64,000 bases of DNA from Candidatus Saccharimonadia bacterium (GCA_041907025.1 JAYRIB010000004.1:1223-65222); one strand, 5' to 3'. Positions 4,305 through 47,055 are shown, numbered from the stretch's first letter. Numbers and translations are program-made. The notes: generated by a model not told the origin, from the sequence alone.

Positions 4305-6128
4305 ATGGCAGATCAGCTAAAAAATAAGGTAGACATCGAGGCTATGCGGCACTCGGTCGCTCATATGTTGGCCGCCGCAGTACAGAAGTTGCACCCTGAT
4401 GCGCAGTTTGGCGTCGGCCCAGTGGTGGAGAATGGCTTTTATTATGACATTAAGCCTAGTAAGGCATTGAGTAGTGATGATTTGGGCGCCATCGAAGCTG
4501 AGATGGCAAAGATCGCATTAGCCGATGAGGATTTTGTACGTGAGGAATGGCTGATTGACGAAGCCATAACGTATTTCAAAGAGCATAATCAGCCATTTAA
4601 GGTCGAGTTGCTCAAAGACCTCAAAACCAAAGGGACGACATCGCTGAAAGACACTGGCGATGAAAACTTAGTTGGTAATAATGTTGCTGGAGTTACAACG
4701 GTTACCATATACAGAACAGGTGACTTTGTTGACTTATGCCGCGGCCCACACATAGGAAGCACTTCTCAGGCCGGTGCCTACAAGCTTACCAAGCTGGCCG
4801 GAGCCTACTGGCGCGGGGACGAGAAGAATCCGCAGATGCAACGCGTGTATGGCGTGGCGTTTGCGACTAGTGAGGAGCTTGGTCACTATTTGGCCATGAT
4901 CGAAGAGGCCGAGAAGCGTGATCACCGTAAGCTAGGCAGAGAGCTCGACCTGTTTGTGTTCTCAGATCTTGTAGGTTCAGGCCTGCCGATGTACACGCCA
5001 CGGGGCACAATTCTTCGTAACCAGCTCGACAATTTCGTACAAGAGATGCGTAATGAGTACGATTACGAAGAAGTGTCTGTGCCGCACATAACTAAAAAGG
5101 ATGCCTACATTGCCAGCGGACACTGGCAGAAGTTCTCAGATGAACTCTTTAAGGTGAATACAAGGGAAGGGCATGAGTTTGCCATGAAGCCGATGAATTG
5201 TCCGCATCATGCTCAGATCTACGCAAGTCGCGCTCGATCGTATCGGGATTTGCCCATTCGTTACCGCGAGACGACGACGTGTTATCGTGACGAGCAGACG
5301 GGTGAGCTCTCGGGCCTTAACAGGACACGGGCCTTTGCTCAAGATGATGCGCATGTGTTCTGCCGACCAGAGCAAGTGCAAGAAGAAGTCACAAAAATAT
5401 GGAGCATTATTGAGAAGTTTTATGCCACACTGGGCTTTGATGACTTAACTGTTCGGTTCTCACGGCATGATAGCGAGAATATGGCGTCATATTCTGGCGG
5501 TGAAGCTGCTTGGAGGGATGCCGAAGCTCAGCTTCTTGCGATTATCAAAGACAAGGTAGGTGATGGTTACGTGGACGGTGTAGGTGAGGCTGCATTCTAT
5601 GGCCCTAAGATAGACTTTATGGGCCGAGATGCGTTGGGTCGAGAGTCACAAGTGGCAACCATTCAGCTCGACTTTAACCAGCCTGCTGGCTTTGGGCTTG
5701 AGTTTATCGATGAACAGGGCCAAAAACAGCAACCAGTGATGATTCACGCTGCAATCATGGGCTCGATTGAGCGTTTTCTGTCGGTCTACATAGAGCATGT
5801 AGGCGGTGCCTTCCCGACTTGGTTAGCCCCCGAGCAAGTCCGAGTCTTGCCGGTGTCGGATAAGTTTGCCGAGTATGGCGCTCAAGTAGCTGCCGAGCTT
5901 AAGGCCGCCGGGGTGCGTGTGAAGCTCGATGATGACAATGAGTCACTTGGTAAGCGCATACGTGCTGCTGAAGCCATGAAGGTTCCCTACACGCTCATAG
6001 TGGGTGAGAGGGAACAGGAAGCCGGCGAGGTGGCTGTGCGCAAGCGAGGCGAGGGCGACAAAGGCAGTAAGAGTTCCAGGGAGTTTGTGAAAGACATTCT
6101 TGCCGAAATAAGTTCACGAAAGGCTTAG
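4305..6128 (+). CDS. thrS: threonyl-tRNA synthetase
   Basis: Class II aaRS motifs HRKLGRELDLF, FAMKPMNCPHH and RDEQTGELSGLNRTRAFAQDDAHVFC, plus the N-terminal SAD-like RHSVAHML. Confidence 0.9.
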   Translation: MADQLKNKVDIEAMRHSVAHMLAAAVQKLHPDAQFGVGPVVENGFYYDIKPSKALSSDDLGAIEAEMAKIALADEDFVREEWLIDEAITYFKEHNQPFKVELLKDLKTKGTTSLKDTGDENLVGNNVAGVTTVTIYRTGDFVDLCRGPHIGSTSQAGAYKLTKLAGAYWRGDEKNPQMQRVYGVAFATSEELGHYLAMIEEAEKRDHRKLGRELDLFVFSDLVGSGLPMYTPRGTILRNQLDNFVQEMRNEYDYEEVSVPHITKKDAYIASGHWQKFSDELFKVNTREGHEFAMKPMNCPHHAQIYASRARSYRDLPIRYRETTTCYRDEQTGELSGLNRTRAFAQDDAHVFCRPEQVQEEVTKIWSIIEKFYATLGFDDLTVRFSRHDSENMASYSGGEAAWRDAEAQLLAIIKDKVGDGYVDGVGEAAFYGPKIDFMGRDALGRESQVATIQLDFNQPAGFGLEFIDEQGQKQQPVMIHAAIMGSIERFLSVYIEHVGGAFPTWLAPEQVRVLPVSDKFAEYGAQVAAELKAAGVRVKLDDDNESLGKRIRAAEAMKVPYTLIVGEREQEAGEVAVRKRGEGDKGSKSSREFVKDILAEISSRKA

Positions 6129-6133
6129 ATAGT

Positions 6134-6628
6134 ATGACGAACTTAGTCCAAGGGAGCAAAGAATACCCCTACCATATCTCTGTAGGTGCTGTGCTCGTTA
6201 ATAGTGAGCGTAAGGTCTGCGCACATTACTTTGACGAACTCCAGATTGGCTCCAGGAAGGCGAAGGACTTTTATATCCTAATGCGGGAAACGCCTGAGCC
6301 AGGGGAGTCGCTAGAGGCTACTTTGGAGCGTGGGTTGCGCGAAGAGTTTGGAGCTACGGCTACCACAAGGCATTTTATCGGAAGTGTGTTGGCGAATATC
6401 GGCGGAGTAGAATCTCTTAAAGAAAAGACAACTCTGTACTTCCTGTGTGACGTTATAGCTCATGAAGCATCCCTGCGTGAGAATATTGATGCAGAGAGTA
6501 GCAGTAAGGTAGGTTGGTATGACCCTGACTTTTTAATCGCCAGAATGAAACAGCAGAGTAGAGAGACTGGCTATGAAGATATCGATGAATCAATGATACT
6601 CGAAAGGGCACAGCAATATCTAAGCTAA
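6134..6628 (+). CDS. NUDIX hydrolase
   Basis: Nudix box GESLEATLERGLREEFG. Confidence 0.7.
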   Translation: MTNLVQGSKEYPYHISVGAVLVNSERKVCAHYFDELQIGSRKAKDFYILMRETPEPGESLEATLERGLREEFGATATTRHFIGSVLANIGGVESLKEKTTLYFLCDVIAHEASLRENIDAESSSKVGWYDPDFLIARMKQQSRETGYEDIDESMILERAQQYLS

Positions 6629-7479
6629 TTACCATTGTTGGCCCAACGGCGAGCGGGAAGTCAGCGCTCGCTATGGAGCTCGCCCAAAAGTATGATGGCG
6701 AGATCATCTGCGCTGACTCACGCACCATTTATAAAGGTTTTGACATTGGTACGGCCAAGCCTTGCCGCGAAGACCGGGCGCTCGTGCCTCATCATTTGCT
6801 CGACATCTGTGAACCAGGTGAGGAGTTCAGTGCCGCCCAGTTTAAAGTGTTGGCTGAGGCTACGATTCATGACATCTGGAGGCGGGGTAACGTGCCATTT
6901 TTGGTAGGGGGCAGCGGCATGTATGTGGATAGTGTGCTGTTTGGCTATCAGTTTCGTGAGAGCGGCGAGGAATCAAAGGACTACTCGGCTGCCACGCTAG
7001 AAGAGCTGCAGCGGCTAGTAGCCGAGCAATATCCCGCCGAATTCGAGACTATAGATAGGCAAAACAGACGGCGATTAGAGCAGATTTTGGCGCGAGGGGT
7101 GGCCGATAGCAAAGATCGCAAGGAGCTTGCATACGATACACTTATCCTAGGCCTGGCGCCCGATAGGCTTTTACTAAAGCAAAAAATAGCTGATCGCATA
7201 GAGGCCATGTTGAACAATGGATTTGTTCAAGAGGTTGAAGACCTCATGGAACGCTACGGCAGTGACTGTCCGCAGCTAGGGATTATAGGTTACAAGCATG
7301 CACAGGATTACCTTGAGGGCAATGTATCACTTCCGGAGCTCAAAGAGCGCTTTGCTCGAGACGATGGAGCTCTCGCCAAGCGGCAGATGACGTGGTTTAA
7401 GCGTAACGAGGCTATTCATTGGCTAACTGCAGCTGGCGAAGCCGAGGAGTTGGTTAGTGACTATTTGTCGCACCCGTAA
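6616..7479 (+). CDS. miaA: tRNA dimethylallyltransferase (IPP transferase); likely non-AUG start
   Basis: Strong MiaA similarity: ADSRTIYKGFDIGTAKP and LVGGSGMY. The P-loop GPTASGKS is encoded in frame at 6640-6663, upstream of the first ATG at 6673. The in-frame AUA at 6616 gives (M)SKLITIVGPTASGKSALA, and AAGGG lies 7 nt upstream. Confidence 0.6.
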   Translation: MSKLITIVGPTASGKSALAMELAQKYDGEIICADSRTIYKGFDIGTAKPCREDRALVPHHLLDICEPGEEFSAAQFKVLAEATIHDIWRRGNVPFLVGGSGMYVDSVLFGYQFRESGEESKDYSAATLEELQRLVAEQYPAEFETIDRQNRRRLEQILARGVADSKDRKELAYDTLILGLAPDRLLLKQKIADRIEAMLNNGFVQEVEDLMERYGSDCPQLGIIGYKHAQDYLEGNVSLPELKERFARDDGALAKRQMTWFKRNEAIHWLTAAGEAEELVSDYLSHP

Positions 7480-12136: not shown

Positions 12137-15100
12137 ATGGCTCCCAACGCCACACCACCTAAGCCTACGCTTCGATCCAAACTTCACTTGCGACCCTCAA
12201 CTTCTCTGAAAGTGAGTAAGGCGTCTGTATTTACCCTCCTGGCACTTATATCCATCCAAACCGTCAGTAGTGCCTTGCTTTGGTACGCCGGTAAGATCAA
12301 GGCTGACAGCAGTAGCCGAGTAGTAACTACGAGCCCGGCAAGTAGCGTTACTACTACCGGCGCTACGCTCAGTGGCACATACGATTACCCCACAGATGTT
12401 ACTCAGCGTGGCTTCCAGTATGGCTTGACTACTGGCTATGGCAGCCAAGTGGTGGATGACAGTGTGATGACATACGTGGATACGGGTATACTGGGCGGCG
12501 TAGATACGTCAAGCGGTAGTAGTGGCTACGCTACGGATTCCACGGGGAACCTATACTTGACTCACTTTGATGACCACACAAGTGCAAGTGTGCAAAAGTA
12601 CAGTGCAAGTGGCACTCTTGTATCTGAGTTCGGTTCACAGGGCGCAGGAGACGGGCAGTTTGACACTCCGCAGGATGTTGCTTTAGACACGAGCGGGAAC
12701 ATCTATGTCGCTGACACTAATAATAATAGGGTGCAGAAGTTGGATAGCACTGGTAATTACGTGAGCCAGTTTGACCCACTTGAGCAGGGTAGTGGTAAAT
12801 ACATCGTAGTGACTAGGGTTTCCTTAGATAGTCTAGGTAATATATACGTTTTTGGACACTGGGATAGTGATCCGGGTATATCGAATAATTGGCAGCCAGT
12901 AGTTCAGAGGTATAACGCCAGTGGCGTGTTTCAAACCCAGTTAATCAACAGTTCTGGTACGGCAACTAATCAGCTATACTCATATGCGCAAAATACCGAC
13001 CTGACAACTGATACAAGTAATAATCTATACATTACTGATGCTTATAATCACCGGGTGCTCAAATACGACAGTAGTGGCAATTTCTTGGCTCAGTGGGGAA
13101 CAACTGGCGTTGCTAGCAACGCCCCAGGCCAGTTTAATCTTCCAACTGGCATCGCGCGTGGGCCTGGCGGGCAATTGTATATTTCAGATGGCGGGAATGA
13201 CAGGGTTCAAATCATCAGCCCAGCAGGGGATTACGTACAGAGTTGGTCAGACAATCAAATTGGGTTTCCACTTAATTTAACAGTGAGCCTGAACGGTAAG
13301 ATATACGCCCAATCATGGGGGGGTGCTGGAGGCTTGGTTGTTGGTACACCATCAATCAATGCGAATATCACAAGCCTCCAGTGCGACACTACCTACCATT
13401 ACCGTGCCTTTACTACTGATGCAGACAGTACTGAATACGGTTCAGACGCTACATTTACAACAGATGCTTGTACGGGGTTGCGTAACATAACTAATTTGCC
13501 CACGACCAGCATAAGTCAAACGGGGGCTACACTCCACGGCGCTACAGATTACCCACAGGGCATTACTGGGCGCGGCTTCCAATACGGGTTAACGACTGGT
13601 TATGGTAGCACGGTAGTGGACAGTTCGGCTGTAAACGCAAGTTTTGGCAGTAAGGGGGTAACTAGTTTAAGCGGGACTACAGCGATTGACCTATCTGTCG
13701 ATGCTAACGGCTATAAGTACGTTGCATATTATGGTGATCATGTTGTTAAGAAATATGATGCCTCCAATAATCTCGTGCTTCAGTGGGGCTCAGAAGGGCT
13801 TGGGGCCGGTCAGTTCGGTGGTATTTCTGGGATTACCGCTGCGCCGGATGGCTTTGTTTATACTACGGAGTATTATCTCCAGAATGGTGGAGATATTCTT
13901 TCAAACCCCCGGGTTCAGAAGTTTGACTCCAATGGAAATTTCATTACCCAGTGGGGTTCGTTAGGGTCAGGCGATGGGCAGTTTTCAGCTCCTAAAGATG
14001 TCGCTGTAGACAAGAGTAATAACGTGTATGTTGTAGACTACAACCGCGTTCAGAAGTTTGACTCCAATGGAAATTTCATTACCCAGTGGGGTTCGTTAGG
14101 GTCAGGCGATGGGCAGTTTTCAAACCTAAGTGGTATCGCAATTGCCCCAGATGGCTCTGTGTATGTATCAGACAGGAGTAATGCCCGTATACAGAAGTTT
14201 AGTTCCAGTGGAACATTTATTCTGAAATGGGGTCAGCCGGGGGGTATGGGTGATGGTGAGTTCATCGCCCCTGAGCGAGTCGGAGTAGACGGGTCGGGCA
14301 ATGTATACGTATTGGATTATGCTGGTGGCACATTAAGGATGCAGAAGTTTGATTCAAACGGCAGTTTCCTGGCTCGTTTCGGCGGTTATTTCTATTTTGG
14401 TACCGGACTTTCTGTTACGCCATCCGGTCAGGTATATACCATAGATGCAGCTTCCACTACAGACTACTACACATATGGTATTGATGCCCCTATCACTACT
14501 CTTACCTGTGGCACAGAGTACCACTATCGTCCATACGTAACAGATCGTGGCGGCACGCAGTATGGAAACGATGCAACATTTACAACATCTGCCTGCCCGC
14601 CACTTAACATCACCACAACTAGTTTGGATGATGGCGTGGTTGGCGTGAGTTACTCTGATCTCATTACGGTCGATAATCTCCAGGGTGGCGAGACGTATAC
14701 GGTTAGTTCCGGAAGCGTGCCCCCAGGGTTGACACTTGGGTCGACAACTGGGTATTTGGAAGGGATTCCCTCACAGGAAGGACATTATTTCTTCGATGTA
14801 ACAGTTGAGAATTCTGGATCAAGCGACACCGCGCAAATAGATGTTCATATTTATAACACAAACCCACAATTAAGTATCACGACTGTGGCTATTCCGGACA
14901 CCCAAGTCGGCGCTTCGTATCAGGAATACATCTACACCAGTGACGGTGTGGGTGATGTGAGCTTCAGTATAACTTCAGGTGCGCTACCAGATGGTATGTC
15001 TATTACCTCGTACGGCACGAGCGGGGTATTGTACGGTACTCCAACTACTCCAGGGACCTATACCTTCACCGTGCAAGCTCAGGATAGCCGTGGGGCTGGT

Positions 15101-17272
15101 GTCGGCACTGATACACAGGAGTACTCCATAACGGTCTCGGCGGCTAGTATTAATATCACTACTACCAGCTTGCCGTCAGGTCTAGTGGGCTTGCCATACA
15201 ATAAAAGTATCGATTATGAGTCTGCTAACGCTCAGCCGGTCTTTTCACTTGTTTCTGGAACTTTACCTCCAGGTGTTTCTCTAACCCTTCAGGGCTATCT
15301 GCAAGGCACCCCAACGCAACAAGGTACTTACGATTTTACGGTGCAAGCCGATGATGGTTTTAGTACGGATACCCAGGCACTTAGCTTGCTCATAGGGGCA
15401 CCGGCGGCAGTTACTCCTAATACGCCTTTCGTAAAAATCACTTCGCCAGCGAATGGGGGCTCTATTGGGGCTACAAAGCTTGACGTAGCAGGTATTGGTC
15501 CTGCAGGCAATAAGGTCATACAGCTAACGATAGATAATGTTGTGCAAGGTACAACGAATACGGATAATGAAGGCAAATGGGCATATCAAGCAAGTGGTCT
15601 AAACCCAGGTTCTCATACACTGAGTGCCACTTGGGTTCCGGGCGACGATGTGGCTTTTGTGCCGTTCTTTAACCCCGAAACTTTCTCGAGCGGGATTTCG
15701 GTGATAGATAATGCTAGCTTGCAAACGGTGAAGACAATATACCTCCCAGAATATTCCTTGGCATATGGAGTAACACTCAACCATGCTCGTACTAAGTTGT
15801 ACGCATATGGGGGGCAGCTAAACTTGGGAGAGGGTGAACTTACGAGCTCTGCACAGCTATGGGAGGTTGATCTGGCAACTATGGCTATCCGCACGGTAGG
15901 TTATCCAAGTATGCCTGCCCAAATTGGCTTTGTTACTGCAGTTAACATCTCGCCAGACGACACAGGAGTCGTCCTGCTGAAGATGGAGGGCGGAGAACAG
16001 GCACAACAGGTACTAATCTCACGAGTAGATTTACCAAGCTTCACACCTACAGGGACAGACATTCAGGCTGAAGCTTTAAATACGCCAGCTGTAGTTGATA
16101 GGTTCTTTGAGCTTGCTTTAGCAAGAGCTTACACGTACAGTACCGATTCACAGCAGCGCTACATGTACTTCTTGCTAAGCGCCCTCGATGACGCACCAAG
16201 CAGTAATGAAGTGGTTGTTATTGATACACTAGATGGTAGCTCGAGTACGATCGAGCTTGGTGAGGGGGCTGAATATATACCTAAGGTAATTCAGACTGTA
16301 GGAGATAGGCTCTATGTACTCACCAGCTCGCATCTCCTCACTATTGATGTCGTTACGGGAGGTATTCTGAGCGACATTACTCCAGGTTTCAGTATCGATG
16401 GCTCCGCTTTTGGGTCCGTTGTGTTTGATGTCCCCCCAGATGGTTTGACCGCACTGCTTAGCACATCGGGATTTGGTAACTCCACTACTGTTGTTAGTAT
16501 TGACCTTGCTTCGGGCCAGTCGACTATTCTTCCGAATAGTATCGAAACCAGTAGGCGGCTGGCTAGGGCACTTGGTAAACAAGGCCCTATAGGCATAGGT
16601 ACAACTAGTGATGGTTCTAGGCTATATATTTCATCTCAGGGCCTGTATATATTTGATATGGCCAACGGGGTACCAATTGACCTGGCTGGGTTGCTCCCGC
16701 CAGGTGCAGAGGCCTCGGGACTTACAAGTCATGACTACATTGCCCCTATTCGCCCTCGAGATACCATCGCTTTTACCGTTGCTTCTGGTCCCGTATCGTG
16801 TACCACTACCAACACCTGTCCACCACCGCCGCCTTGTGCTGTGACCAACACCTGTCCACCGCCACCACCGCCCCCGACTGAACCAGCCACAGTCGGCACT
16901 ACCAATCCTAAGACTCCCAAGATTGTGGTTACACCCTTCCCACCAGCGGCATCTGCAGCCTCACGCCTGGGGTGGTTTGACCGCGGTGTTCTGGCGGTGG
17001 CTCGCTTTGTACCTGGGCAAGCAGCCATTGGTTTTCCGTTCCTCTTGTTCCTGCTCTTGCTCCTGTTTGCCCTCTCCCTGTACTATCAGTCTGCCAATGA
17101 GGTCCGTAAGGACAAGCTTAACCGTCAGTTCCTCGCCAAGCGTAAGTCCATCCGAGCGCAACAAGACAACTTTATAGCCCTGGCCTCACACTATCTCAAC
17201 ACCCCAATTACGATTATTCAGAATGGTATAGAGGTGATGGAGGAGTCGAGTAGGGGGCCAAAGAGTAAGTAA
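12137..17272 (+). CDS. giant cell-surface protein (1711 aa): NHL repeats, fibronectin/Ig-like (He_PIG-type) modules, poly-Pro linker, C-terminal TM and HisKA-like tail
   Basis: N-terminal signal anchor; at least 8 NHL-like repeats (NNRVQKFDSNGNFITQWGSLGSGDGQF); repeated modules TGATLSGTYDYPTDVTQRGFQYGLTTGYGS and CDTTYHYRAFTTDADSTEYGSDATFTTDAC; four He_PIG-like Ig modules (TLPPG..L...G.L.GTPT..GTY.FTV); TTNTCPPPPP x2; TM FPFLLFLLLLLFALSL; C-terminal FIALASHYLNTPITIIQNGIEVMEE. Confidence 0.8.
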   Translation: MAPNATPPKPTLRSKLHLRPSTSLKVSKASVFTLLALISIQTVSSALLWYAGKIKADSSSRVVTTSPASSVTTTGATLSGTYDYPTDVTQRGFQYGLTTGYGSQVVDDSVMTYVDTGILGGVDTSSGSSGYATDSTGNLYLTHFDDHTSASVQKYSASGTLVSEFGSQGAGDGQFDTPQDVALDTSGNIYVADTNNNRVQKLDSTGNYVSQFDPLEQGSGKYIVVTRVSLDSLGNIYVFGHWDSDPGISNNWQPVVQRYNASGVFQTQLINSSGTATNQLYSYAQNTDLTTDTSNNLYITDAYNHRVLKYDSSGNFLAQWGTTGVASNAPGQFNLPTGIARGPGGQLYISDGGNDRVQIISPAGDYVQSWSDNQIGFPLNLTVSLNGKIYAQSWGGAGGLVVGTPSINANITSLQCDTTYHYRAFTTDADSTEYGSDATFTTDACTGLRNITNLPTTSISQTGATLHGATDYPQGITGRGFQYGLTTGYGSTVVDSSAVNASFGSKGVTSLSGTTAIDLSVDANGYKYVAYYGDHVVKKYDASNNLVLQWGSEGLGAGQFGGISGITAAPDGFVYTTEYYLQNGGDILSNPRVQKFDSNGNFITQWGSLGSGDGQFSAPKDVAVDKSNNVYVVDYNRVQKFDSNGNFITQWGSLGSGDGQFSNLSGIAIAPDGSVYVSDRSNARIQKFSSSGTFILKWGQPGGMGDGEFIAPERVGVDGSGNVYVLDYAGGTLRMQKFDSNGSFLARFGGYFYFGTGLSVTPSGQVYTIDAASTTDYYTYGIDAPITTLTCGTEYHYRPYVTDRGGTQYGNDATFTTSACPPLNITTTSLDDGVVGVSYSDLITVDNLQGGETYTVSSGSVPPGLTLGSTTGYLEGIPSQEGHYFFDVTVENSGSSDTAQIDVHIYNTNPQLSITTVAIPDTQVGASYQEYIYTSDGVGDVSFSITSGALPDGMSITSYGTSGVLYGTPTTPGTYTFTVQAQDSRGAGVGTDTQEYSITVSAASINITTTSLPSGLVGLPYNKSIDYESANAQPVFSLVSGTLPPGVSLTLQGYLQGTPTQQGTYDFTVQADDGFSTDTQALSLLIGAPAAVTPNTPFVKITSPANGGSIGATKLDVAGIGPAGNKVIQLTIDNVVQGTTNTDNEGKWAYQASGLNPGSHTLSATWVPGDDVAFVPFFNPETFSSGISVIDNASLQTVKTIYLPEYSLAYGVTLNHARTKLYAYGGQLNLGEGELTSSAQLWEVDLATMAIRTVGYPSMPAQIGFVTAVNISPDDTGVVLLKMEGGEQAQQVLISRVDLPSFTPTGTDIQAEALNTPAVVDRFFELALARAYTYSTDSQQRYMYFLLSALDDAPSSNEVVVIDTLDGSSSTIELGEGAEYIPKVIQTVGDRLYVLTSSHLLTIDVVTGGILSDITPGFSIDGSAFGSVVFDVPPDGLTALLSTSGFGNSTTVVSIDLASGQSTILPNSIETSRRLARALGKQGPIGIGTTSDGSRLYISSQGLYIFDMANGVPIDLAGLLPPGAEASGLTSHDYIAPIRPRDTIAFTVASGPVSCTTTNTCPPPPPCAVTNTCPPPPPPPTEPATVGTTNPKTPKIVVTPFPPAASAASRLGWFDRGVLAVARFVPGQAAIGFPFLLFLLLLLFALSLYYQSANEVRKDKLNRQFLAKRKSIRAQQDNFIALASHYLNTPITIIQNGIEVMEESSRGPKSK

Positions 17273-17967: not shown

Positions 17968-18747
17968 ATGCTCATCGTTTTACTCCTTTCTGCTATACAA
18001 GGCATCAGTGAATTCTTGCCGATATCTTCGTCGGCCCACCTGCTGATTACCACCTGGGCACTCAACGTTAGCGACCTTGGGCTGAGCTTTGACGCCGCTA
18101 TCCACATTGGTACCTCGCTAGCTCTGCTCATCTTCTTTTATAAAGACTTCTGGCGGCTTTGGAAGGAGCGCAGCCCCTTGCTGTACTACATAGCACTAGC
18201 CACCATCCCAGCTGCACTAATTGGCTTCGTGGGGGACAAATGGATAGAGTCAACGCTGCATCGAAGCTCCGTGGCGCCGCTGATCGTCGGCATCGGTATG
18301 ATCTTATTTAGCTTTTTACTACTTTACGTTGACAACATCGCTAAGCTCAACCGTGACAGCAAGGACATTGGGCTCAAAGACACGCTGATTGTTGGTTTTG
18401 CCCAGGCCTTAGCACTCATACCCGGTACGTCGCGTTCGGGAATTACTATGACAGCCGGGCTGTGGCGCGGGCTTAAGCGCGAAGACGCAGCCCGGTTTAG
18501 CTTTTTGTTGGCCGCCCCAATTAGCCTGGGGGCAGGGCTGTATAAGGCTTTTGGTTTAATTTCTAATCCCGAGCCAACCGTCTCCATGCTGCAAGTAGGG
18601 GTCGGAATTGTCGCCTCTGGCTTGGTTGGCTTGGCAGTTATTAAATGGCTGCTTAGATACCTAGGTAGCCACAACTTGCGGCTGTTTGTGGTGTATCGGA
18701 TCGCCTTTGGTGTACTAGTAATTGCTCTGTGGGTATGGCGGCAATAA
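17968..18747 (+). CDS. uppP: undecaprenyl-diphosphate phosphatase
   Basis: AIQGISEFLPISSSAHLLI and PGTSRSGITMTAGL, the BacA/UppP signature motifs. Confidence 0.85.
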   Translation: MLIVLLLSAIQGISEFLPISSSAHLLITTWALNVSDLGLSFDAAIHIGTSLALLIFFYKDFWRLWKERSPLLYYIALATIPAALIGFVGDKWIESTLHRSSVAPLIVGIGMILFSFLLLYVDNIAKLNRDSKDIGLKDTLIVGFAQALALIPGTSRSGITMTAGLWRGLKREDAARFSFLLAAPISLGAGLYKAFGLISNPEPTVSMLQVGVGIVASGLVGLAVIKWLLRYLGSHNLRLFVVYRIAFGVLVIALWVWRQ

Positions 18748-19178
18748 TGGGTGAATTTCCAGCACACGTTAAGGTATTTTGTGATGGTGGTTCGCGCGGC
18801 AACCCTGGTCCAGCAGCTTCTGGCGTAGTAATAACTACAACGAATGATGAGGTTATTGGTGAGTATCACGAATACCTTGGACTACGAACGAATAATTACG
18901 CCGAATACAGCGCTGTCATCTTGGGATTGAGCGAGCTTAAAGCTCACCAGGGAGTAGCTCGTGCTGACTTCTACCTGGATAGTGAGCTCGTTACCAAGCA
19001 GCTGAATGGGCAATACCGCGTCAAGCACGTTGATATGAAGCCACTCTATACTAGAGTACAAGAATTGTTGGCAGCAACTGGAATTGAGGTCAGTTTTTCT
19101 CATGTTCGTCGCGAGTATAATAAGCTGGCTGATGCCCAAGTGAACGTTTGCTTGGATGCTCAGATTGGCTCGACATAA
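18747..19178 (+). CDS. rnhA: ribonuclease HI
   Basis: VKVFCDGGSRGNPGPAASGVVI ... NNYAEYSAVILGLSEL ... DSELVTKQLNGQYRV. TAATG stop/start overlap with uppP. Confidence 0.75.
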   Translation: MGEFPAHVKVFCDGGSRGNPGPAASGVVITTTNDEVIGEYHEYLGLRTNNYAEYSAVILGLSELKAHQGVARADFYLDSELVTKQLNGQYRVKHVDMKPLYTRVQELLAATGIEVSFSHVRREYNKLADAQVNVCLDAQIGST

Positions 19179-19206: not shown

Positions 19207-19610
19207 AGTTAGTCAGTGAGTGATCGCTCCACGGCGCAAGCCAAGGAGAGGAAAGTCCGAACAGCGTAGAGTAGGGTGGTTGCTAACGGCAACCGAGGGA
19301 GACCTTAGGGAAAGTGCCACAGAGACAATACCGCCCCTCACATTTATGGCAACATAAAAGGTGCGGGGTAAGGGTGAAAAGAGTGCGGTAAAAGCGCACA
19401 GCGGACCTTAGGTGACTAGGTCTGGAGGTAAACCCCACCTGCTGCAAGACTATGGGCCCCGTCGCAAGACAGAGTTACTCGCTCTTAGTTGGGTTTGTCG
19501 CATGATGTAGCCTTCGGGCTGCACGCCAACTGTAGCAATGCAGGAGGAAGATAGATGATCACAGCTAGCCTTCGGGTTAGACACAGAATTCGGCTTATAG
19601 CTGACTAACT
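19207..19610 (+). ncRNA. rnpB: RNase P RNA (bacterial type A)
   Basis: P1 pairing AGTTAGTCAG/CTGACTAACT; conserved P4 and other blocks GGAAAGTCCGAACAGC, AGGGAAAGTGCCACAGAGACAA, GGTAAACCCCACCTG, ACAGAATTCGGCTTATAG. Confidence 0.85.
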
Positions 19611-19695
19611 AGGCACTTATTTTGTTATATTTACTTCTCAGCAGGCACAAGGGAAAGTTTCATACGCTATTATGCTAGAATAAGAGATAACGACC

Positions 19696-24021: not shown

Positions 24022-24216
24022 TTATAGTCCTAACATTTTCTTGATATTCTTGCTGTCACCCAGTGCTACGCCGTGCTCCAGAGTAAAGGCACGTTTGCGC
24101 GTAGCTGACTTAATCGTCAGTTTGTGGGCGCGAGTAGCTTTACGGCGCATAATCTTACCGCTGCCGGTAATCTTTACGCGCTTGCTCATCGTCTTATTCG
24201 TCTTTAGCTTTGGCAT
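24022..24216 (-). CDS. rpmI: 50S ribosomal protein L35
   Basis: MPKLKTNKTMSKRVKITGSGKIMRRKATRAHKL. Confidence 0.85.
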   Translation of the reverse strand: MPKLKTNKTMSKRVKITGSGKIMRRKATRAHKLTIKSATRKRAFTLEHGVALGDSKNIKKMLGL

Positions 24217-24724
24217 CTTTTCTCCTTGCTACTACCATGGACAGTTCTCGGCCCGATAGATTGGGCTCCTGCTCTTTAGTGGCGATATCTGAAAGCTTCA
24301 CGTAGAAGTTGTCCAGAATGGCACGACCAAGCTCAGGGTGAGTTATCTCGCGACCCTTGAAGCGTAGATTCACTTTTACTTTATTACCTTGCTCAAGGAA
24401 TTTGATAGCTGCTTTGAGCTTAACCTCAATGTCGTGCGAACCAGTTTTGAGGCCGAGTCGGACTTGCTTAACCTCGACGTTCTTCTGGTTTCGGCGACTT
24501 TTCTGCAGCTGCTTCTCTTGTTCGTACCGATACTTGCCCCAGTCAACAAGTTTGACGACGGGAGGATCGGCAGTCGGTGAAACTTCGGCTAGATCAAAGC
24601 CCTGCTCTTCTGCAATATTCAGGGCTTCTCGAATTGAGATAACACCGTGTTGCTCAGAGTCAGATCCAAGTAACCGTACCATTGGTGCAGTTATCTCATG
24701 ATTCAACCTAATTCTACCTTTTAT
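24194..24724 (-). CDS. infC: translation initiation factor IF-3, probable AUA start
   Basis: (M)KGRIRLNHEITAPMVRLLGSDSEQHGVISIREALNIAEEQGFDLAEVSPTADPPVVKLVDWGKYRYEQEK aligns with E. coli IF3 MKGGKRVQ...EVRL...G. AAGGAG lies 9 nt upstream of AUA; the ORF extends to GTG 24763. Confidence 0.8.
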   Translation of the reverse strand: MKGRIRLNHEITAPMVRLLGSDSEQHGVISIREALNIAEEQGFDLAEVSPTADPPVVKLVDWGKYRYEQEKQLQKSRRNQKNVEVKQVRLGLKTGSHDIEVKLKAAIKFLEQGNKVKVNLRFKGREITHPELGRAILDNFYVKLSDIATKEQEPNLSGRELSMVVARRKDAKAKDE

Positions 24725-24788
24725 AAAAGAGATCTCCTTAAAGCTCAAAGAGAATGATAGCACTAAGAACCAAGGAAATCAAGGTGTT

Positions 24789-32146: not shown

Positions 32147-32524
32147 GGGGCTGACCAGCTTCGACGTTGGATTCTTGACATATAACTGCAAGCCGCCTGA
32201 TCGACGTTACAGATCAATCACAATAAGTGCAAACACTTTTGTTAGCAAAGTAAAAGCTGCTTTTAGCATGCCAAGCTTTGCGCCAGCTTACGCCTAAAAA
32301 CGTTCGCCGCCTATTGCGCCTGACATCAGATGAAGCGCAGGGCGTCACAGTATCTGGTTGCTTAGCTATCGTTCTATCCGGTAGCTCCTAAGACGCAGAA
32401 TAGAGGAGTGATGAGTATGTTTGGCTCGCTTTAAGTGCCTGTACCTCCCAAAACAACCACCAAGCAAGCTAAGCTTGTAGTACGTTATAGAGACAGACTA
32501 GCGGACCAGGGTGCGATTCCCTGC
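32147..32524 (+). ncRNA. ssrA: tmRNA (SsrA)
   Basis: 5' GGGGCUGACCAGCUUCGACG matches the tmRNA 5' consensus GGGGCUGAUUCUGGAUUCGACG. The 3' end GGACCAGGGUGCGAUUCCCUGCAGCUCCACCA is the tRNA-like T-arm/acceptor/CCA. Candidate tag ORF GCA AAC ... GCC TAA at 32229-32297 (ANTFVSKVKAAFSMPSFAPAYA*); its frame is uncertain. TATAGT -10 at 32131-32136. Confidence 0.8.
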
Positions 32525-32542
32525 AGCTCCACCAAAGCTCTT

Positions 32543-42012: not shown

Positions 42013-44070
42013 TTACAGCTTTGTAGAGATGACCTTGTTGCCGCTGAGCGCGTACAGGGTGCCGTCAGCGGTTACACTAAAGTCCTTTAGCTTTACTCCA
42101 GCTGGAGTGAGGTATTGCTGCTTGTACGCAAAGCCATTACCATCGAGGTTTATGCCGACAATTTGTTGCTGGTTTGTTCCAAGAGCAATGATTGACTGCT
42201 CGTTTTGAAGTATAAGCTTAGTTAGGCCTTTGACCGAAGTTGCCAGGTCGGTAATTGAAGCGGGTTCGCCAATACCGTTGGTGAACGTTGTAATTTTAGT
42301 ACTGCCATCGACCATTAAGATAGAACCGTTGATGGCGAGAGCAGTGCCTTTGGCTACACTTGCAGCGTTTGCCCGTTTAATATAGCTTGAGCTCGCGCTA
42401 AAACCAATCGAGGTGCGACTGTGTCGGTAGATTTGATCATTCTGAGGTGAGAGGATATAGAGGTTGCCAACATAACTCGCAATGGCGTTGCCAGCGATCC
42501 AATTGCCGCCACTTAGTTTGACCGTAGTAAGTGGTTTTCCAGGTATAAACTGCAGCACATCTGGTGCAGAGGTTAGGATGAAGATGCTATCTCCAAGCGA
42601 AGACGGTGTTGCGGCGACGGCAAGCTTTAGGCTACTGTTTTGAGCTACGATGCTTGATGATTTGCGGGCAATGTCTATCTGGTACAGGGCGCCTGCATTC
42701 GTATCAACCGTATACAGCCGGTCGTCGAGTTGCACAATGAAATTCGCAGTAAACTTCTTTACTGATGTAAAATCTACAATATTATTAACTTTAAGTCGGG
42801 TGATGTTGCTTAGCTTGTCGTTGACGGTAGAGAGGCGCGCCGCTAACTCCTGAGGGCTAATGCTCTTTTGGCTGCGCAAATCACTGTCCATTTCAAAGGC
42901 GCGGCTGATTTGTTGAGCATTATAGGCATTGGTAATTGCCTCTAGCTTGGTGGTGGCTGATTTTGTGGAGGCGGCACTACCATCAACTTGCCCTAAACTC
43001 TGTTTGGCCTCGGCGCTTTCGGTCAAGGCAACCACTTCTTTGTAGTCTGTCACTAAGTCTCGATAGTTCGTGGTATTGGCGGAATACAGGTACGAACCGA
43101 TTCCAATGCACAGGACCAGCCCCAGAGCGATCACGAGCGCTTTGCGCGGGTTTGGGTTAATATACTTAGTCCACAGGTTGTTCCAAATGGATTTGCTATG
43201 ATGTTTGGCATTCGGCCAGGCTTTGGTTTTCCACCAGGAGTGAGACTTGCTAGCAGCTGCTTTGACAGCTCCAGAGGCCTTGAGCGCGAGCGGTGCGCCA
43301 GCAGCCTTTACCTCGTCGAGCTTGGTTTGCGATTTACCTACCATGACGGTGTCGGGTTGGCCTTCGAGGGGTTCGTTTGAGGCCTGTTCCAGGTCGCTGA
43401 GCTCAACTACAAGGGCGGCACAGCGTGCACTGCTTGCCTCACCCTCGAGTTGGCTACTCATTTTATGTACGCAGCTGGCAGGAGAGTTGTCGATTACCAG
43501 CTGGTTGAGGGAACTGGCTTCGAATTCAAAGAGGACTGCGGGTGTGGCAAAGAGCAGTTTATCTTTTTGCTTGAGTGTGCCCTCGGCAATGCCGTGGAAG
43601 GTTTTGCGCGGGCTGCTGCCTGCATTCAGGCCCTCAGCTAAGTCGGTAAGCTTGGAGCCTCGGTACAGGCGTGCATGCGCCTTGCCACACTGGGATAAAT
43701 AGAGCTGATCTTGATTCAGTATGGCTACAACTGCACTGAGACTACTAATGTGCTTGGCATGATGTGATTCATTGAGTCTGGCGAGTTGGCTGTTCAGGGC
43801 AGCGATGGACTTTTCGAACCGAGTGCTCGGCTCGTCATCAAACTTCTTGTTAAAGTATTCTTCACCCATAGTCTTAATAACCAAATCGACTATTTGACTT
43901 GCTAGGGACTCCTTGGCCATGACTTCGATGACAACAAATAGGCTACCAAGTTGGAGTTTTTGCTCAATCGGTGGCTCGAAATGGTAGGCAAATGCCAAAG
44001 CCGGCACACTGGAGTGCTTCGTGGGGTATGGTACAAGTTTGGCTACGCGCTGAAGGAGGGGTGTGTTCAT
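42013..44070 (-). CDS. membrane protein: cytoplasmic PP2C-like (possibly inactive) N-domain, one TM helix, extracytoplasmic beta-rich C-domain
   Basis: GSLFVVIEV and LYLSQCGKAHARLYRGSKLTDL loosely match PP2C motifs (fgVfDGHGG; lanvGDSRa.l.r.g) but lack the metal-binding Asp residues. TM helix ALVIALGLVLCIGIGSYLY. Start at MNTPLL (44070); the ORF extends to 44427, overlapping the divergent helicase gene. Confidence 0.35.
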   Translation of the reverse strand: MNTPLLQRVAKLVPYPTKHSSVPALAFAYHFEPPIEQKLQLGSLFVVIEVMAKESLASQIVDLVIKTMGEEYFNKKFDDEPSTRFEKSIAALNSQLARLNESHHAKHISSLSAVVAILNQDQLYLSQCGKAHARLYRGSKLTDLAEGLNAGSSPRKTFHGIAEGTLKQKDKLLFATPAVLFEFEASSLNQLVIDNSPASCVHKMSSQLEGEASSARCAALVVELSDLEQASNEPLEGQPDTVMVGKSQTKLDEVKAAGAPLALKASGAVKAAASKSHSWWKTKAWPNAKHHSKSIWNNLWTKYINPNPRKALVIALGLVLCIGIGSYLYSANTTNYRDLVTDYKEVVALTESAEAKQSLGQVDGSAASTKSATTKLEAITNAYNAQQISRAFEMDSDLRSQKSISPQELAARLSTVNDKLSNITRLKVNNIVDFTSVKKFTANFIVQLDDRLYTVDTNAGALYQIDIARKSSSIVAQNSSLKLAVAATPSSLGDSIFILTSAPDVLQFIPGKPLTTVKLSGGNWIAGNAIASYVGNLYILSPQNDQIYRHSRTSIGFSASSSYIKRANAASVAKGTALAINGSILMVDGSTKITTFTNGIGEPASITDLATSVKGLTKLILQNEQSIIALGTNQQQIVGINLDGNGFAYKQQYLTPAGVKLKDFSVTADGTLYALSGNKVISTKL

Positions 44071-44199
44071 GGAAGTGCTATGGATTTGCAGTTTTTGCAG
44101 ACTTACAAGGTGTTTAAGCAGAATGTTTTCCTTAGCATAACATTTTTGGCACTTGGCGGCCAGGGAGTATGTAGGGAGGTGAGCTGCTATACTAAGGTC

Positions 44200-47055
44200 A
44201 TGGAAAAAACCGATCACATTGCAGGGCTCAACAAGGCACAGGCCAGGGCAGTAACGCATGGTAGCGGCCCAGCTCTTGTGGTGGCGGGCGCAGGGACAGG
44301 TAAGACCACGGTTATTACCCGACGGATAGCTTGGTTGATAGCTACGGGTAAGGCGCGGCCAGATGAGATTCTCGCACTTACCTTTACCGACAAGGCCGCC
44401 CGTGAAATGGAGGAGCGGGTTGATCACTTATTGCCATATGGGGTGGTGAGCACCAATATCATGACATTCCACGCCTTGGGTGATCAGATTCTGCGTGATC
44501 AGGCGTTGGAGATTGGCATTTCAACCGACTTCCAGGTAATGAGTGGTTTTCAGCAGATAATCTTCATGCAACAGATTCTGCCAGAGCTCGAGTTGGATCA
44601 TTACGCACCGCTCGGTAATCCATACCAGTTTCTGGAGGCACTTGCTACGCATTTTTCACGACTCAAAGATGAATGTATTACGCCGGCGCTGTATCGAGAG
44701 TTTGCTGCCCAGCAGATAGTTAAGGCAGCAACAGAGGAGGCTAAGTCTGAGGCTGAGCGCGTTCGTGAATTGGCGTTTGCCTACAGTGTGTATACCGAGC
44801 AGGCTCGAGCTCAGGCTAAGCTGGACTTTGGGGATCAAATCTCGCTGACCATTGAACTATTCAAGGCACGGCCAAAGGTCCTGCTTGGCTACCAGCAACG
44901 GTTCAAATACATCATGGTAGACGAGTATCAGGATACAAATTACGCTCAAAACGAGTTCGTAAAGATGTTGACAAAAAAGCATCAAAACATTATGGTTGTA
45001 GGTGATGATGACCAGTCAATCTACCGCTTCAGAGGTGCTTCAATCGCGAATATCTTGCAGTTTAAAAAACAGTACCCCAAAACCAAGCAAATCGTGATGA
45101 CCGAAAACTATCGGTCGACTCAGGAAATTCTAGATATTAGCCATACGCTTGTTGCTAACAACAATCCAGACCGACTTGAAGTTCAAAACAAGATCGATAA
45201 GCGTTTAGTCGGTTTCAGTCATGGTCCAGCACCTGTACTCATGCAGGCCCCCACCTTACCAGAGGAGATGCAGCTGGTAGCGCGCCAAGTAGCAAGACTC
45301 ATTGCCGATGGCGTTGAGCCGCGTGACATTGCGATTTTAATGCGCAAAAACAGTCAGTCGAGCGCCATAATGTTGGCCTTAGAGGCTGAGGGGGTGATGG
45401 CTGAAACCTCCCAAAGGGAAAGTCTGTTTATGCGTCCAGAGGTAAAAGCTCTCCTTAACTTTGTGGCGGTCATGAATGACCCCCAGGACTCAACGGCTAT
45501 GTATGGACTGCTCGCGGGTGATATATACCAGATGCAGCTTGGTTCGCTGGTCAGTATGACATCTCAGGCAAAGCGTGAGCACAGCAGTCTTGAGCAGTAT
45601 TTGAGGGGTATTGAAGGGGCGGAGGCAGGTATGGAGAGGGTGATTGAGCATATCGATGAGTACCGCAAGCACGCCCGTGAGCTGAGTGCTGGACAGCTGT
45701 TGTATAAATTCATACATGAGCAGGGTTATCTGGGAAAGCTGCTCGAAGCAGCCGAAAATAGTAATGAAGCGGCCCTAAAGATTCAAAACATTGCCCAGTT
45801 TTTTGGGCTGATCAGGGAGTTTGAAAACATGAGTCTTGATCCAACGATTTATCATTTCTGGGCCTATGTTTCCGAGATGCGCAGCTCAGAAGCCGACATA
45901 TTGTCGACCGAATCGCCACTTGATCAAAATGCGGTGCGGATTATGACGATACACAAGGCAAAGGGGCTAGAGTTCGAGGCGGTGTTTGTGCCTAATATGG
46001 TTGCAGAGGTCTTTCCCTCGCGTCGTCAGGCCGAAAAGATTCAGATTCCAGATGGCCTGATAAATGTCGATACCAGTCGGGAATGGCATGTTGCTGAGGA
46101 GCGACGTCTTTGTTACGTGGCGCTCACGCGTGCCAAGAAATACCTCTACTTGTCATGCTCATACGATCATGGCGGAGCTCGCTTGCGTAAGATGTCGCCG
46201 TTTGTAGCCGAAGCACTTGGTGCCCAAGCTCCCATACAACTGGAGGCTAAGACGGGTGCTCTTGAGCTGATTGACCAATTTGCAGTACCGCAAAAACCAG
46301 AACACGATCTGACTGCGCACTTGTACGAGGATGGCTGGCTGAATCTCACCCCACACCAGATTGACGACTATTTGCGCGATCCAGAAAAGTTTTGGTTATT
46401 CCATGTCCTGAAGCTGCCACAGGGGCCGTTTCATGCCCTTGTGTATGGATCGGCTATTCATCATGCGATAGAGTTTTATTACCGCGGGCGGCTCAACGGT
46501 CGCACGGTTCCACTCAAAGATGTGCAGCAGGCTTTTGAGGACGCTTGGTCGAGTGAGGGCTTTGTGTCCAGGCGCCACGAGCAGCAACGGCTGTCGCGTG
46601 GGAGAGAGGTCATTAAACGGTTCTATGAACGCGAGAAGCAAGCTGAGTTGCCACAATGCGTTGAGTTACCGTTTAGTCTCATTATCCCTGAGCTCAAAGT
46701 CCGTATTAGCGGTCGATATGACGCAGTTTTTGCGCACAAGCTGGTTGGTAGCAAGAATGGGGCGATCGAAATTCGCGACTTCAAGACTTCCCAAGTAAAG
46801 GACCAGGCGGCTGCAGAACGGAAGCTCAAAGACAACGTGCAGCTGGCCATTTATGCACTCGCTTGGGAGCGCACCACGCAGCAGCCAGTTGCAAGTGTGT
46901 CGTTGGACTTTGTTGAGCCTGGGCTTATCGCTGCGACAACGAAGGTTGATCATGTCAAGACGCTCGAGAAGATTAAGAAAGTGGCTGACGGGATAGCTCG
47001 CCGCGACTTCAAAGGTGGTGCCCAGTCGCTCTACAAGGTAACGCAACCATGGTAA
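44200..47055 (+). CDS. UvrD/PcrA-family helicase with a C-terminal PD-(D/E)xK (RecB-type) nuclease domain (AddA-like)
   Basis: Start MEKTDHIAGLNKAQARAVTHGSGPALVVAGAGTGKTTV (UvrD motif I); motif II VDEYQDTN; C-terminal ISGRYDAV...IEIRDFKTS nuclease motif. The ORF extends upstream to 43951. Confidence 0.75.
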   Translation: MEKTDHIAGLNKAQARAVTHGSGPALVVAGAGTGKTTVITRRIAWLIATGKARPDEILALTFTDKAAREMEERVDHLLPYGVVSTNIMTFHALGDQILRDQALEIGISTDFQVMSGFQQIIFMQQILPELELDHYAPLGNPYQFLEALATHFSRLKDECITPALYREFAAQQIVKAATEEAKSEAERVRELAFAYSVYTEQARAQAKLDFGDQISLTIELFKARPKVLLGYQQRFKYIMVDEYQDTNYAQNEFVKMLTKKHQNIMVVGDDDQSIYRFRGASIANILQFKKQYPKTKQIVMTENYRSTQEILDISHTLVANNNPDRLEVQNKIDKRLVGFSHGPAPVLMQAPTLPEEMQLVARQVARLIADGVEPRDIAILMRKNSQSSAIMLALEAEGVMAETSQRESLFMRPEVKALLNFVAVMNDPQDSTAMYGLLAGDIYQMQLGSLVSMTSQAKREHSSLEQYLRGIEGAEAGMERVIEHIDEYRKHARELSAGQLLYKFIHEQGYLGKLLEAAENSNEAALKIQNIAQFFGLIREFENMSLDPTIYHFWAYVSEMRSSEADILSTESPLDQNAVRIMTIHKAKGLEFEAVFVPNMVAEVFPSRRQAEKIQIPDGLINVDTSREWHVAEERRLCYVALTRAKKYLYLSCSYDHGGARLRKMSPFVAEALGAQAPIQLEAKTGALELIDQFAVPQKPEHDLTAHLYEDGWLNLTPHQIDDYLRDPEKFWLFHVLKLPQGPFHALVYGSAIHHAIEFYYRGRLNGRTVPLKDVQQAFEDAWSSEGFVSRRHEQQRLSRGREVIKRFYEREKQAELPQCVELPFSLIIPELKVRISGRYDAVFAHKLVGSKNGAIEIRDFKTSQVKDQAAAERKLKDNVQLAIYALAWERTTQQPVASVSLDFVEPGLIAATTKVDHVKTLEKIKKVADGIARRDFKGGAQSLYKVTQPW

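Follow-up and report, generated by a model that had tools for sequence, protein, structure and literature searches.

The textbook exception to initiation at AUG is infC (PMC5499595), which starts at AUU, AUC or AUA (together, AUH) and is subject to autoregulation by IF3. Conserved AUA starts outside infC have been proven experimentally only recently, in Staphylococcus aureus, where ribosome profiling and reporters established the AUA starts of infC, ccpN and citZ, with expression at ∼10–30% of that from AUG, and where Ribo-Ret placed the start of cvfC1 at AUU (PMC13009471). In Escherichia coli, pcnB is kept at low expression by an AUU start (bioRxiv 10.1101/063800). Here, the start of miaA was examined in a stretch of 64,000 nucleotides (nt) from Candidatus Saccharimonadia bacterium (GCA_041907025.1 JAYRIB010000004.1:1223-65222), which is referred to as the window and to which all coordinates refer unless another sequence is named. 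A first-pass annotation of this DNA had observed that the P-loop of MiaA is encoded ahead of the first ATG in its frame, and had proposed AUA at 6616 as the probable start. Comparison with related lineages indicates, with a probability of about 0.7, that miaA initiates at AUA 6616 with GAAAGGG as its Shine-Dalgarno sequence, the former start having been replaced through insertion of a gene encoding a NUDIX hydrolase. The cause had been missed by the first-pass annotation: the ancestral canonical start was lost when the incoming NUDIX gene separated thrS from miaA.

By sequence comparison, miaA joins the known conserved AUH starts (those of infC, pcnB, ccpN, citZ and cvfC1) in the features compared, namely the lack of a canonical alternative (ATG, GTG or TTG), conservation of the codon and the presence of a Shine-Dalgarno sequence. 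As with infC, an essential N-terminus is encoded before any canonical start, and a conserved AUH codon is preceded by a Shine-Dalgarno sequence. Unlike infC, miaA does not encode a translation factor and has no obvious autoregulatory logic, its GAAAGGG is weaker than the AAGGAG of infC, and both the start codon and the Shine-Dalgarno sequence fall within the terminal coding portion of a different gene. The AUA starts of ccpN and citZ, and the AUU start of cvfC1, resemble that of miaA in being conserved, Shine-Dalgarno-directed and associated with reduced expression of ordinary metabolic or regulatory genes. However, the S. aureus starts have been mapped experimentally and have strong, extended Shine-Dalgarno sequences in intergenic leaders, whereas the miaA start is proposed from sequence comparison and is located within an overlapping upstream open reading frame (ORF). 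The organism also differs, being uncultivated and, going by the names that its homologues bear, Patescibacteria-like and probably related to Saccharimonadia. The pcnB gene likewise encodes an enzyme of RNA metabolism, but starts at AUU, overlaps no other gene and has not had its start replaced by gene insertion. A further parallel is provided by coupled overlapping gene pairs (ATGA or TAATG), in which the downstream gene has its start and Shine-Dalgarno sequence within the final codons of the gene before it; since the same arrangement is present here, coupling between miaA and the NUDIX gene is likely. In contrast to those pairs, the restart codon is AUA and is positioned 10 nt upstream of the stop codon, as opposed to overlapping the stop directly. 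The ancestral thrS-miaA pair overlapped too, by 26 nt. The particular interest of miaA is that its proposed start codon and Shine-Dalgarno sequence lie inside an inserted gene, whose overlap would hold them in place.

Direct reading of the miaA frame from the TGA at 6586-6588 to the ATG at 6673 reveals no ATG, GTG or TTG across 28 codons. The codons after the stop are ATC AAT GAT ACT CGA AAG GGC ACA GCA ATA(6616) TCT AAG CTA ATT(6628) ACC ATT(6634) GTT GGC CCA ACG GCG AGC GGG AAG TCA GCG CTC GCT ATG(6673), which translate as I N D T R K G T A I(6616) S K L I(6628) T I(6634) V G P T A S G K S A L A M(6673). The coordinates given in the first-pass annotation for the P-loop (GPTASGKS, 6640-6663) and for the absence of a canonical start ahead of ATG 6673 proved to be exact to the base; the AAGGG that it had singled out occupies 6604-6608 and is separated from the ATA by 7 nt. 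A start-free run of 28 codons has a probability of ∼0.24 of arising by chance and is by itself unremarkable. What is beyond chance is that the start-free stretch encodes the N-terminus of the MiaA family.

On family evidence, the gene encodes MiaA, the tRNA (adenosine(37)-N6)-dimethylallyltransferase, with a predicted i6A37 transferase activity. When translated from the ATA, the protein scores 237.3 bits with TIGR00174, the NCBIfam miaA equivalog, which is above the curated cut-off of 148.65, and the match spans positions 2-286 of the 288 in the profile; PF01715 is matched with E = 3.9e-59. The active-site segment that follows helix 1 (DS..Y.G.DIGTAK) is represented by ADSRTIYKGFDIGTAKP, which aligns with GDSMQVYQGMDIGTAK of the MiaA structure 3d3q. 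MiaA structures in the PDB align with the window protein from KLITIVGPTASGKS onwards, i.e. from residue 3-4; residue 4 of the B. halodurans protein (2qgn), at the beginning of KLVAIVGPT, pairs with residue 3 of the window protein, and GPTASGKS aligns to the P-loops of both 3d3q and 2qgn, fitting the N-terminal pattern GxTxxGK[ST]. Judged from these alignments, an N-terminus of the length given by ATA 6616 is natural for MiaA.

The P-loop takes part in binding of dimethylallyl diphosphate (DMAPP) in the MiaA family (PMC5699536), and it is included in the window protein only when initiation precedes ATG 6673; from that ATG, the TIGR00174 match is confined to profile positions 17-286. The public annotation nevertheless places the start at ATG 6673, giving a product of 268 amino acids, and if it were right the P-loop stretch would be an untranslated relic and the enzyme truncated and probably inactive. 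This ATG is the first canonical start and was picked by gene callers in NCBI, JGI and Logan records, but the choice carries little weight, the callers having likewise overlooked an ordinary GTG start in one of the related lineages (L085, described below). Furthermore, ATG 6673 has no Shine-Dalgarno sequence upstream, and its product would be devoid of β-strand 1 as well as of the DMAPP-binding P-loop. Homologues with canonical starts, moreover, also carry the surrounding ALAMELAQ internally. The public annotation is therefore considered highly improbable, a view that is reinforced by the pattern of codon substitution described next.

The closest homologues were sought in a collection of 5.8 billion proteins, where most of them had been called at 267–270 amino acids, and the DNA was then fetched for each lineage. 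The idea that these short calls constitute evidence of non-canonical starts throughout the clade was found to be only partly valid, L085 (protein P0003) having a GTG; because its short call hid this plain GTG, each lineage was checked at the DNA level. Two other searches contributed little. A MiaA protein scan of genome contigs gave nothing useful for the junction, all of the matches listed having ≤45% identity, and a scan of metagenome contigs with a degenerate P-loop DNA pattern returned only five unrelated high-GC miaA genes. The thrS-NUDIX-miaA layout was present in 10 lineages (the window, L086, L087, L088, L090, L097, L098, L099, L100 and L101), in which the junction contains no indels. 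Pairwise identity of MiaA was 61–79% among nine of the ten (L101, fetched later, was left out).

At this level of divergence, synonymous change has reached saturation: a single codon is used at 10 of the 121 degenerate miaA columns at which the amino acid is invariant, and at none of the 10 Arg columns. The segment preceding the ATG, L-I-x-(I/V)-V-G-P-T-A-S-G-K-S-A-L-A, is retained at the protein level in the ten lineages while being encoded with 2–5 codons per column; between 6625 and 6672, Leu is variously CTA, TTA, CTT or CTC, Ile is ATT, ATC or ATA, and Val uses four codons. Amino acid changes in the P-loop are limited to Pro to Ser in one lineage and Ser to Thr in one lineage. Since the amino acids hold while synonymous codons vary freely, the P-loop region can be regarded as translated, and under purifying selection from Leu 6625 on. 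The run of 16 codons that begins at Leu 6625 and finishes at Ala 6670, with (near-)invariant amino acids and saturated synonymous change in all ten lineages, is in this respect unlike an untranslated relic. Orthologue alignment had been suggested as a check in the first-pass annotation, and the outcome is that the P-loop-containing extension is present, and under purifying selection, in the ten lineages.

The same comparison disposes of a sequencing or assembly error, which the first-pass annotation had put forward as an alternative, and which would require that the real codon at 6616 is ATG or that an indel conceals a canonical start. Metagenome assemblies frequently contain single-base errors, but the 121-nt junction, ATA included, is identical in three unrelated assemblies from different projects (JGI 3300045389, Logan DRR685534 and Logan SRR23702509), all of which encode the exact 268-residue product on their contigs. 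Nine further diverged lineages have the ATA and the same frame structure, and an ATG at 6616 would place Cys where the NUDIX proteins of the clade always have Tyr. Neither a defect peculiar to one assembly nor relaxed selection, as would mark an assembly artefact or a pseudogene, was observed, and an error at this position is scarcely credible.

The position of the start could be bounded from both sides. Stop codons in the miaA frame upstream of 6604 occur at columns that differ by lineage (6583, 6586, 6592 and 6601), with L087 having an in-frame TAA at column 6592 and a TGA at column 6601; because of this TGA, 6604 is the earliest position open to the L087 start. Downstream, Lys/Arg-Leu at 6622-6627 fits the K-L-I-x-I-V-G strand of the family, and the Leu is kept through four codons. 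By these comparisons the miaA start is bounded between 6604 and about 6625, and the sole start-like codon between these bounds in 10/10 lineages is the ATA at column 6616. The first base of the ATA is the synonymous third position of a NUDIX Gln or Arg codon (CAA or CGA), yet is A in all ten. Its remaining bases come from the codon of a NUDIX Tyr, a residue that does not vary within the clade, at a position where the wider NUDIX family has Y, F, L, K, R, V, A or S; a different Tyr column of the clade's NUDIX proteins varies between Y and F. The ATC at 6589, which is homologous to the ancestral Met codon, was considered as a start and rejected, since half of the lineages have GTC instead and the L087 stops lie downstream of it.

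The sequence GA(A/G)AGG(G/A) is found 7 nt upstream of the ATA in 10/10 lineages. Within it, the NUDIX Glu alternates between GAA and GAG, whereas the following Arg is always AGG, a rare codon (10% of Arg codons) whose column is among the 4/67 of the NUDIX gene that are codon-invariant. Conservation thus backs both the AUA and the AAGGG of the first-pass annotation. In the window, as in 7/10 lineages, no ATG, GTG or TTG precedes the indispensable N-terminus; L099, L100 and L101 have a GTG directly before GPT, which the window is without, and the residues encoded upstream of this GTG are still conserved. The codon itself and its spacing from the Shine-Dalgarno sequence are both conserved, the result for the codon being partly confounded by the NUDIX Tyr.

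With regard to the form of the Shine-Dalgarno sequence, AAAGG is present between −22 and −5 in 5/30 ATG-started window genes, compared with 0.4 expected, and the NUDIX gene's own start consists of cGAAAGGC, 10 nt and ATG. As a separate observation, A-rich (G)AAAGG(G) variants are ∼12-fold enriched before ATG starts in the window, examples being at 6118-6136 and upstream of 32044 (minus strand), 49244, 56837 and 26542. This enrichment would fit a 16S rRNA 3' tail of CCUUUC, as in Firmicutes; the window contains no 16S gene. Reassignment of AUA to Met was also considered and ruled out: conserved Ile columns use ATA, ATT and ATC in place of one another, and because ATA is an ordinary Ile codon in elongation, no change of the genetic code is involved.

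Several points weigh against initiation at AUA 6616. The ten lineages are related, and counts among them do not represent independent events. The overlap with the NUDIX frame in part confounds the conservation seen for ATA and GAR-AGG, given that the NUDIX family as a whole keeps Glu-Arg and often has an aromatic residue at the Tyr position. The Shine-Dalgarno sequence is a partial match only, with a short effective spacing, and AUA in E. coli reporters supported 1–2% of the expression from AUG (bioRxiv 10.1101/063800). A hairpin is predicted at 6606-6644, in which GGGC and GCAAU (the end of the Shine-Dalgarno sequence and the AU of AUA) pair with AUUGU and GCCC (in the Ile-Val and Gly-Pro codons), and which could sequester both the Shine-Dalgarno sequence and the ATA. 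Its z-score of −2.1 is modest, with no covariation support either way; the same hairpin could make miaA initiation depend upon ribosomes translating the NUDIX gene. Lastly, the TIGR00174 alignment begins at the Ile of codon 6628, such that family conservation alone is compatible with a start there.

The AUU codons at 6628 and 6634 had been offered as alternatives in the first-pass annotation, and both are weakened by the lineage data. The latter loses support in that its column is GTT in two lineages. The former could feasibly be used by termination-reinitiation at the NUDIX stop codon, UAA 6626-6628 on an overlapping UAAUU, to give (M)TIVGPTASGKS. The NUDIX stop overlaps the codon in column 6628 in every lineage (TAATT or TAATC in six, ATAG in four), an arrangement reminiscent of the canonical overlaps TAATG and ATGA of coupled genes. 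However, no Shine-Dalgarno sequence is within range, GAAAGGG being 19 nt away, and the codon drifts between ATT, ATC and ATA in the manner of an ordinary internal Ile codon, with Ile or Val at this position in relatives with canonical starts. It is never ATG, GTG or TTG, even though in the TAATT lineages the NUDIX frame places no constraint on its last two bases. Moreover, a start at 6628 would leave the invariant AGG and ATA unexplained, as well as the fit of the preceding Lys/Arg-Leu to the family strand. Use of this AUU is consequently judged to be unlikely.

Programmed frameshifting would provide a further route into the miaA frame, either by a −1 shift at the NUDIX end, yielding a NUDIX-MiaA fusion, or by a +1 shift from an out-of-frame ATG at 6585 (ATG AAT CAA TGA). 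The stop three codons beyond this ATG gives it a superficial resemblance to prfB-type +1 sites, and the NUDIX frame does contain the rare AGG codon, but a +1 shift at AGG would enter the wrong frame. No slippery heptamer of the form X_XXY_YYZ was found in the NUDIX frame of the ten lineages. ATG 6585 forms part of the conserved D-E-S of the NUDIX family and is absent from L097 and L100, where the sequence is GACGAG, and the L087 stops at columns 6592 and 6601 would lie downstream of any +1 shift at this codon. The slippery sequence and the open path from a canonical start that are associated with frameshifted genes such as dnaX (−1) and prfB (+1) are therefore lacking, and frameshifting seems most improbable. 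A related idea, that gATGAATCA (6584-6592) is a relic, with 1 nt deleted, of the ancestral start ATGAAATCA of L084, was likewise rejected: it encodes the D-E-S of NUDIX DLDESxILERA, and is GACGAG in two lineages.

Initiation at AUA 6616 remains the favoured reading. GAAAGGG, 7 nt upstream, would position the 30S subunit, and the initiator tRNA would read the near-cognate AUA as formylmethionine to give (M)SKLITIVGPTASGKS..., a protein of 287 amino acids with a predicted N-terminal peptide of (f)M/S-KLITIVGPTASGK. Since both signals would lie inside the 3' end of the NUDIX gene, translational coupling with the latter probably aids initiation. MiaA is probably made at a low, and possibly IF3-sensitive, level.

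Two close relatives without the NUDIX gene indicate what the junction may have looked like beforehand. In L084, whose MiaA is 85% identical to that of the window, the miaA ATG overlaps the last 26 nt of thrS (ATGAAATCAGTT... = MKSVREQPSSNRLIAIVGPT), and L085, with 81% identity, has GTG at the position of the L084 ATG. The public 268-residue call for L085 (1917-2807 of that sequence, protein P0003) is wrong, GTG 1917, which overlaps the thrS end, giving the full MKSVPAQRSLGRLVVVVGPTASGKS N-terminus. The MKS... N-terminus is taken to be ancestral because more distant full-length MiaA homologues share it. It is proposed that a NUDIX gene came between thrS and miaA, replacing the first dozen or so codons of the latter including its ATG or GTG start, and that miaA took over the ATA and the Glu-Arg (GAR AGG) of the NUDIX tail as its start codon and Shine-Dalgarno sequence. 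The NUDIX family has the C-terminal motif DLDESxILERA as its own (252 representatives), which implies that the Shine-Dalgarno sequence (Glu-Arg), and probably the ATA too, arrived with the NUDIX tail. Persistence of a weak ATA may be due in part to the overlap, because a change to ATG would substitute Cys for the NUDIX Tyr.

In the MiaA tree, lineages with and without the NUDIX gene are intermingled, the closest MiaA relatives of the window (85% and 81%) being NUDIX-free. This pattern suggests that the presence or absence of the NUDIX cassette is an old polymorphism, with recombination moving the cassette. It is also possible, albeit doubtful, that the overlap-locked AUA is a regulatory device that ties MiaA, and hence i6A37, to IF3 and to NUDIX translation, with the cassette being swapped by homologous recombination among lineages with canonical starts. 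The tie to IF3 in such a scheme would follow from the discrimination of IF3 against AUA, and from infC probably being AUA-started as well. Were this so, i6A37 modification of UNN-decoding tRNAs would follow the IF3 level and translation of the NUDIX gene.

The first-pass annotation had taken miaA and infC together as a hint of unusually frequent AUA initiation in this genome. As far as infC is concerned, the claim probably holds. The infC ORF occupies 24194..24763 on the minus strand, and its first canonical codon, GTG 24763, would add 13 residues that are unsupported. AAGGAG (24739-24734), followed by 9 nt and ATA (24724-24722), would instead give (M)KGRIRLNHEI..., a product of 176 amino acids that agrees in length and N-terminus with an NCBI-annotated IF3 (P0132) and with the TIGR00168 profile; infC thus probably starts at ATA 24724-24722. 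The claim of frequent AUA initiation, in contrast, is not supported by this window. A stop-to-start survey of its 49 large ORFs revealed a protein-like stretch before the first canonical start only in miaA, and a Pfam scan of ten ORFs extended from stop to stop found no domain beginning ahead of the first canonical start.

The features of the locus are collected in the table below. The overlap of the miaA start with the end of the NUDIX gene, as described in the first-pass annotation, was confirmed. The gap between thrS and the NUDIX gene is 5 nt, and no convincing terminator or promoter was found on the plus strand between 6128 and 7479.

Table. Coordinates of the thrS-NUDIX-miaA junction in the window, with the basis for each feature.
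Feature	Position	Strand	Basis or remark
Corrected miaA coding sequence	6616..7479	+	287 codons plus stop, from ATA; TIGR00174 coverage, PDB alignment, purifying selection from 6625
ATA, proposed non-canonical initiation codon	6616..6618	+	ATA in 10/10 NUDIX-bearing lineages
Shine-Dalgarno-like GAAAGGG, in NUDIX codons Glu-Arg-Ala	6602..6608	+	7 nt before ATA; kept in 10/10
MiaA P-loop (Walker A) GPTASGKS	6640..6663	+	Direct reading; amino acids near-invariant
First canonical in-frame ATG, internal Met20 of MiaA (ALAMELAQ)	6673..6675	+	Start of public gene calls
In-frame TGA closing the miaA frame upstream	6586..6588	+	Direct reading
NUDIX hydrolase gene, 164 amino acids	6134..6628	+	PF00293; final 13 nt overlap miaA start
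thrS, upstream gene of apparent thrS-NUDIX-miaA operon	4305..6128	+	Pfam families recorded for orthologues

Elsewhere in the window, a bacterial class A RNase P RNA is encoded at 19208-19613 (plus strand, 211.8 bits), directly downstream of an RNase H/RVT_3-like ORF (18729-19178, plus strand), and a transfer-messenger RNA at 32147-32534 (plus strand), with tag peptide ANTFVSKVKAAFSMPSFAPAYA, was found by both ARAGORN and Rfam. An ORF of 1711 amino acids (12137-17272, plus strand) has NHL/β-propeller repeats near its N-terminus and probably encodes a large surface protein. Two ORFs, at 42013-44427 (minus strand) and 43951-47055 (plus strand), overlap by ∼480 nt when read from their first canonical starts, and at least one of the true starts is probably located further in.

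Every public call examined (NCBI, JGI, Logan and ENA) for this miaA and its NUDIX-linked orthologues is truncated, most being of 267–270 amino acids and devoid of the P-loop, and one beginning at a GTG immediately next to the P-loop. A MiaA shortened in this way would be rated as partial or inactive by automated pipelines. The correct coding sequence is most likely 6616..7479. The locus provides a comparative case in which an insertion would have destroyed a canonical start, AUA and a hidden Shine-Dalgarno sequence would have taken over, and a dual-coding overlap would have hindered repair to ATG. These observations suggest that too few AUA-type starts are annotated wherever gene callers are restricted to ATG, GTG and TTG, with this clade of uncultivated Patescibacteria-like bacteria as an example.

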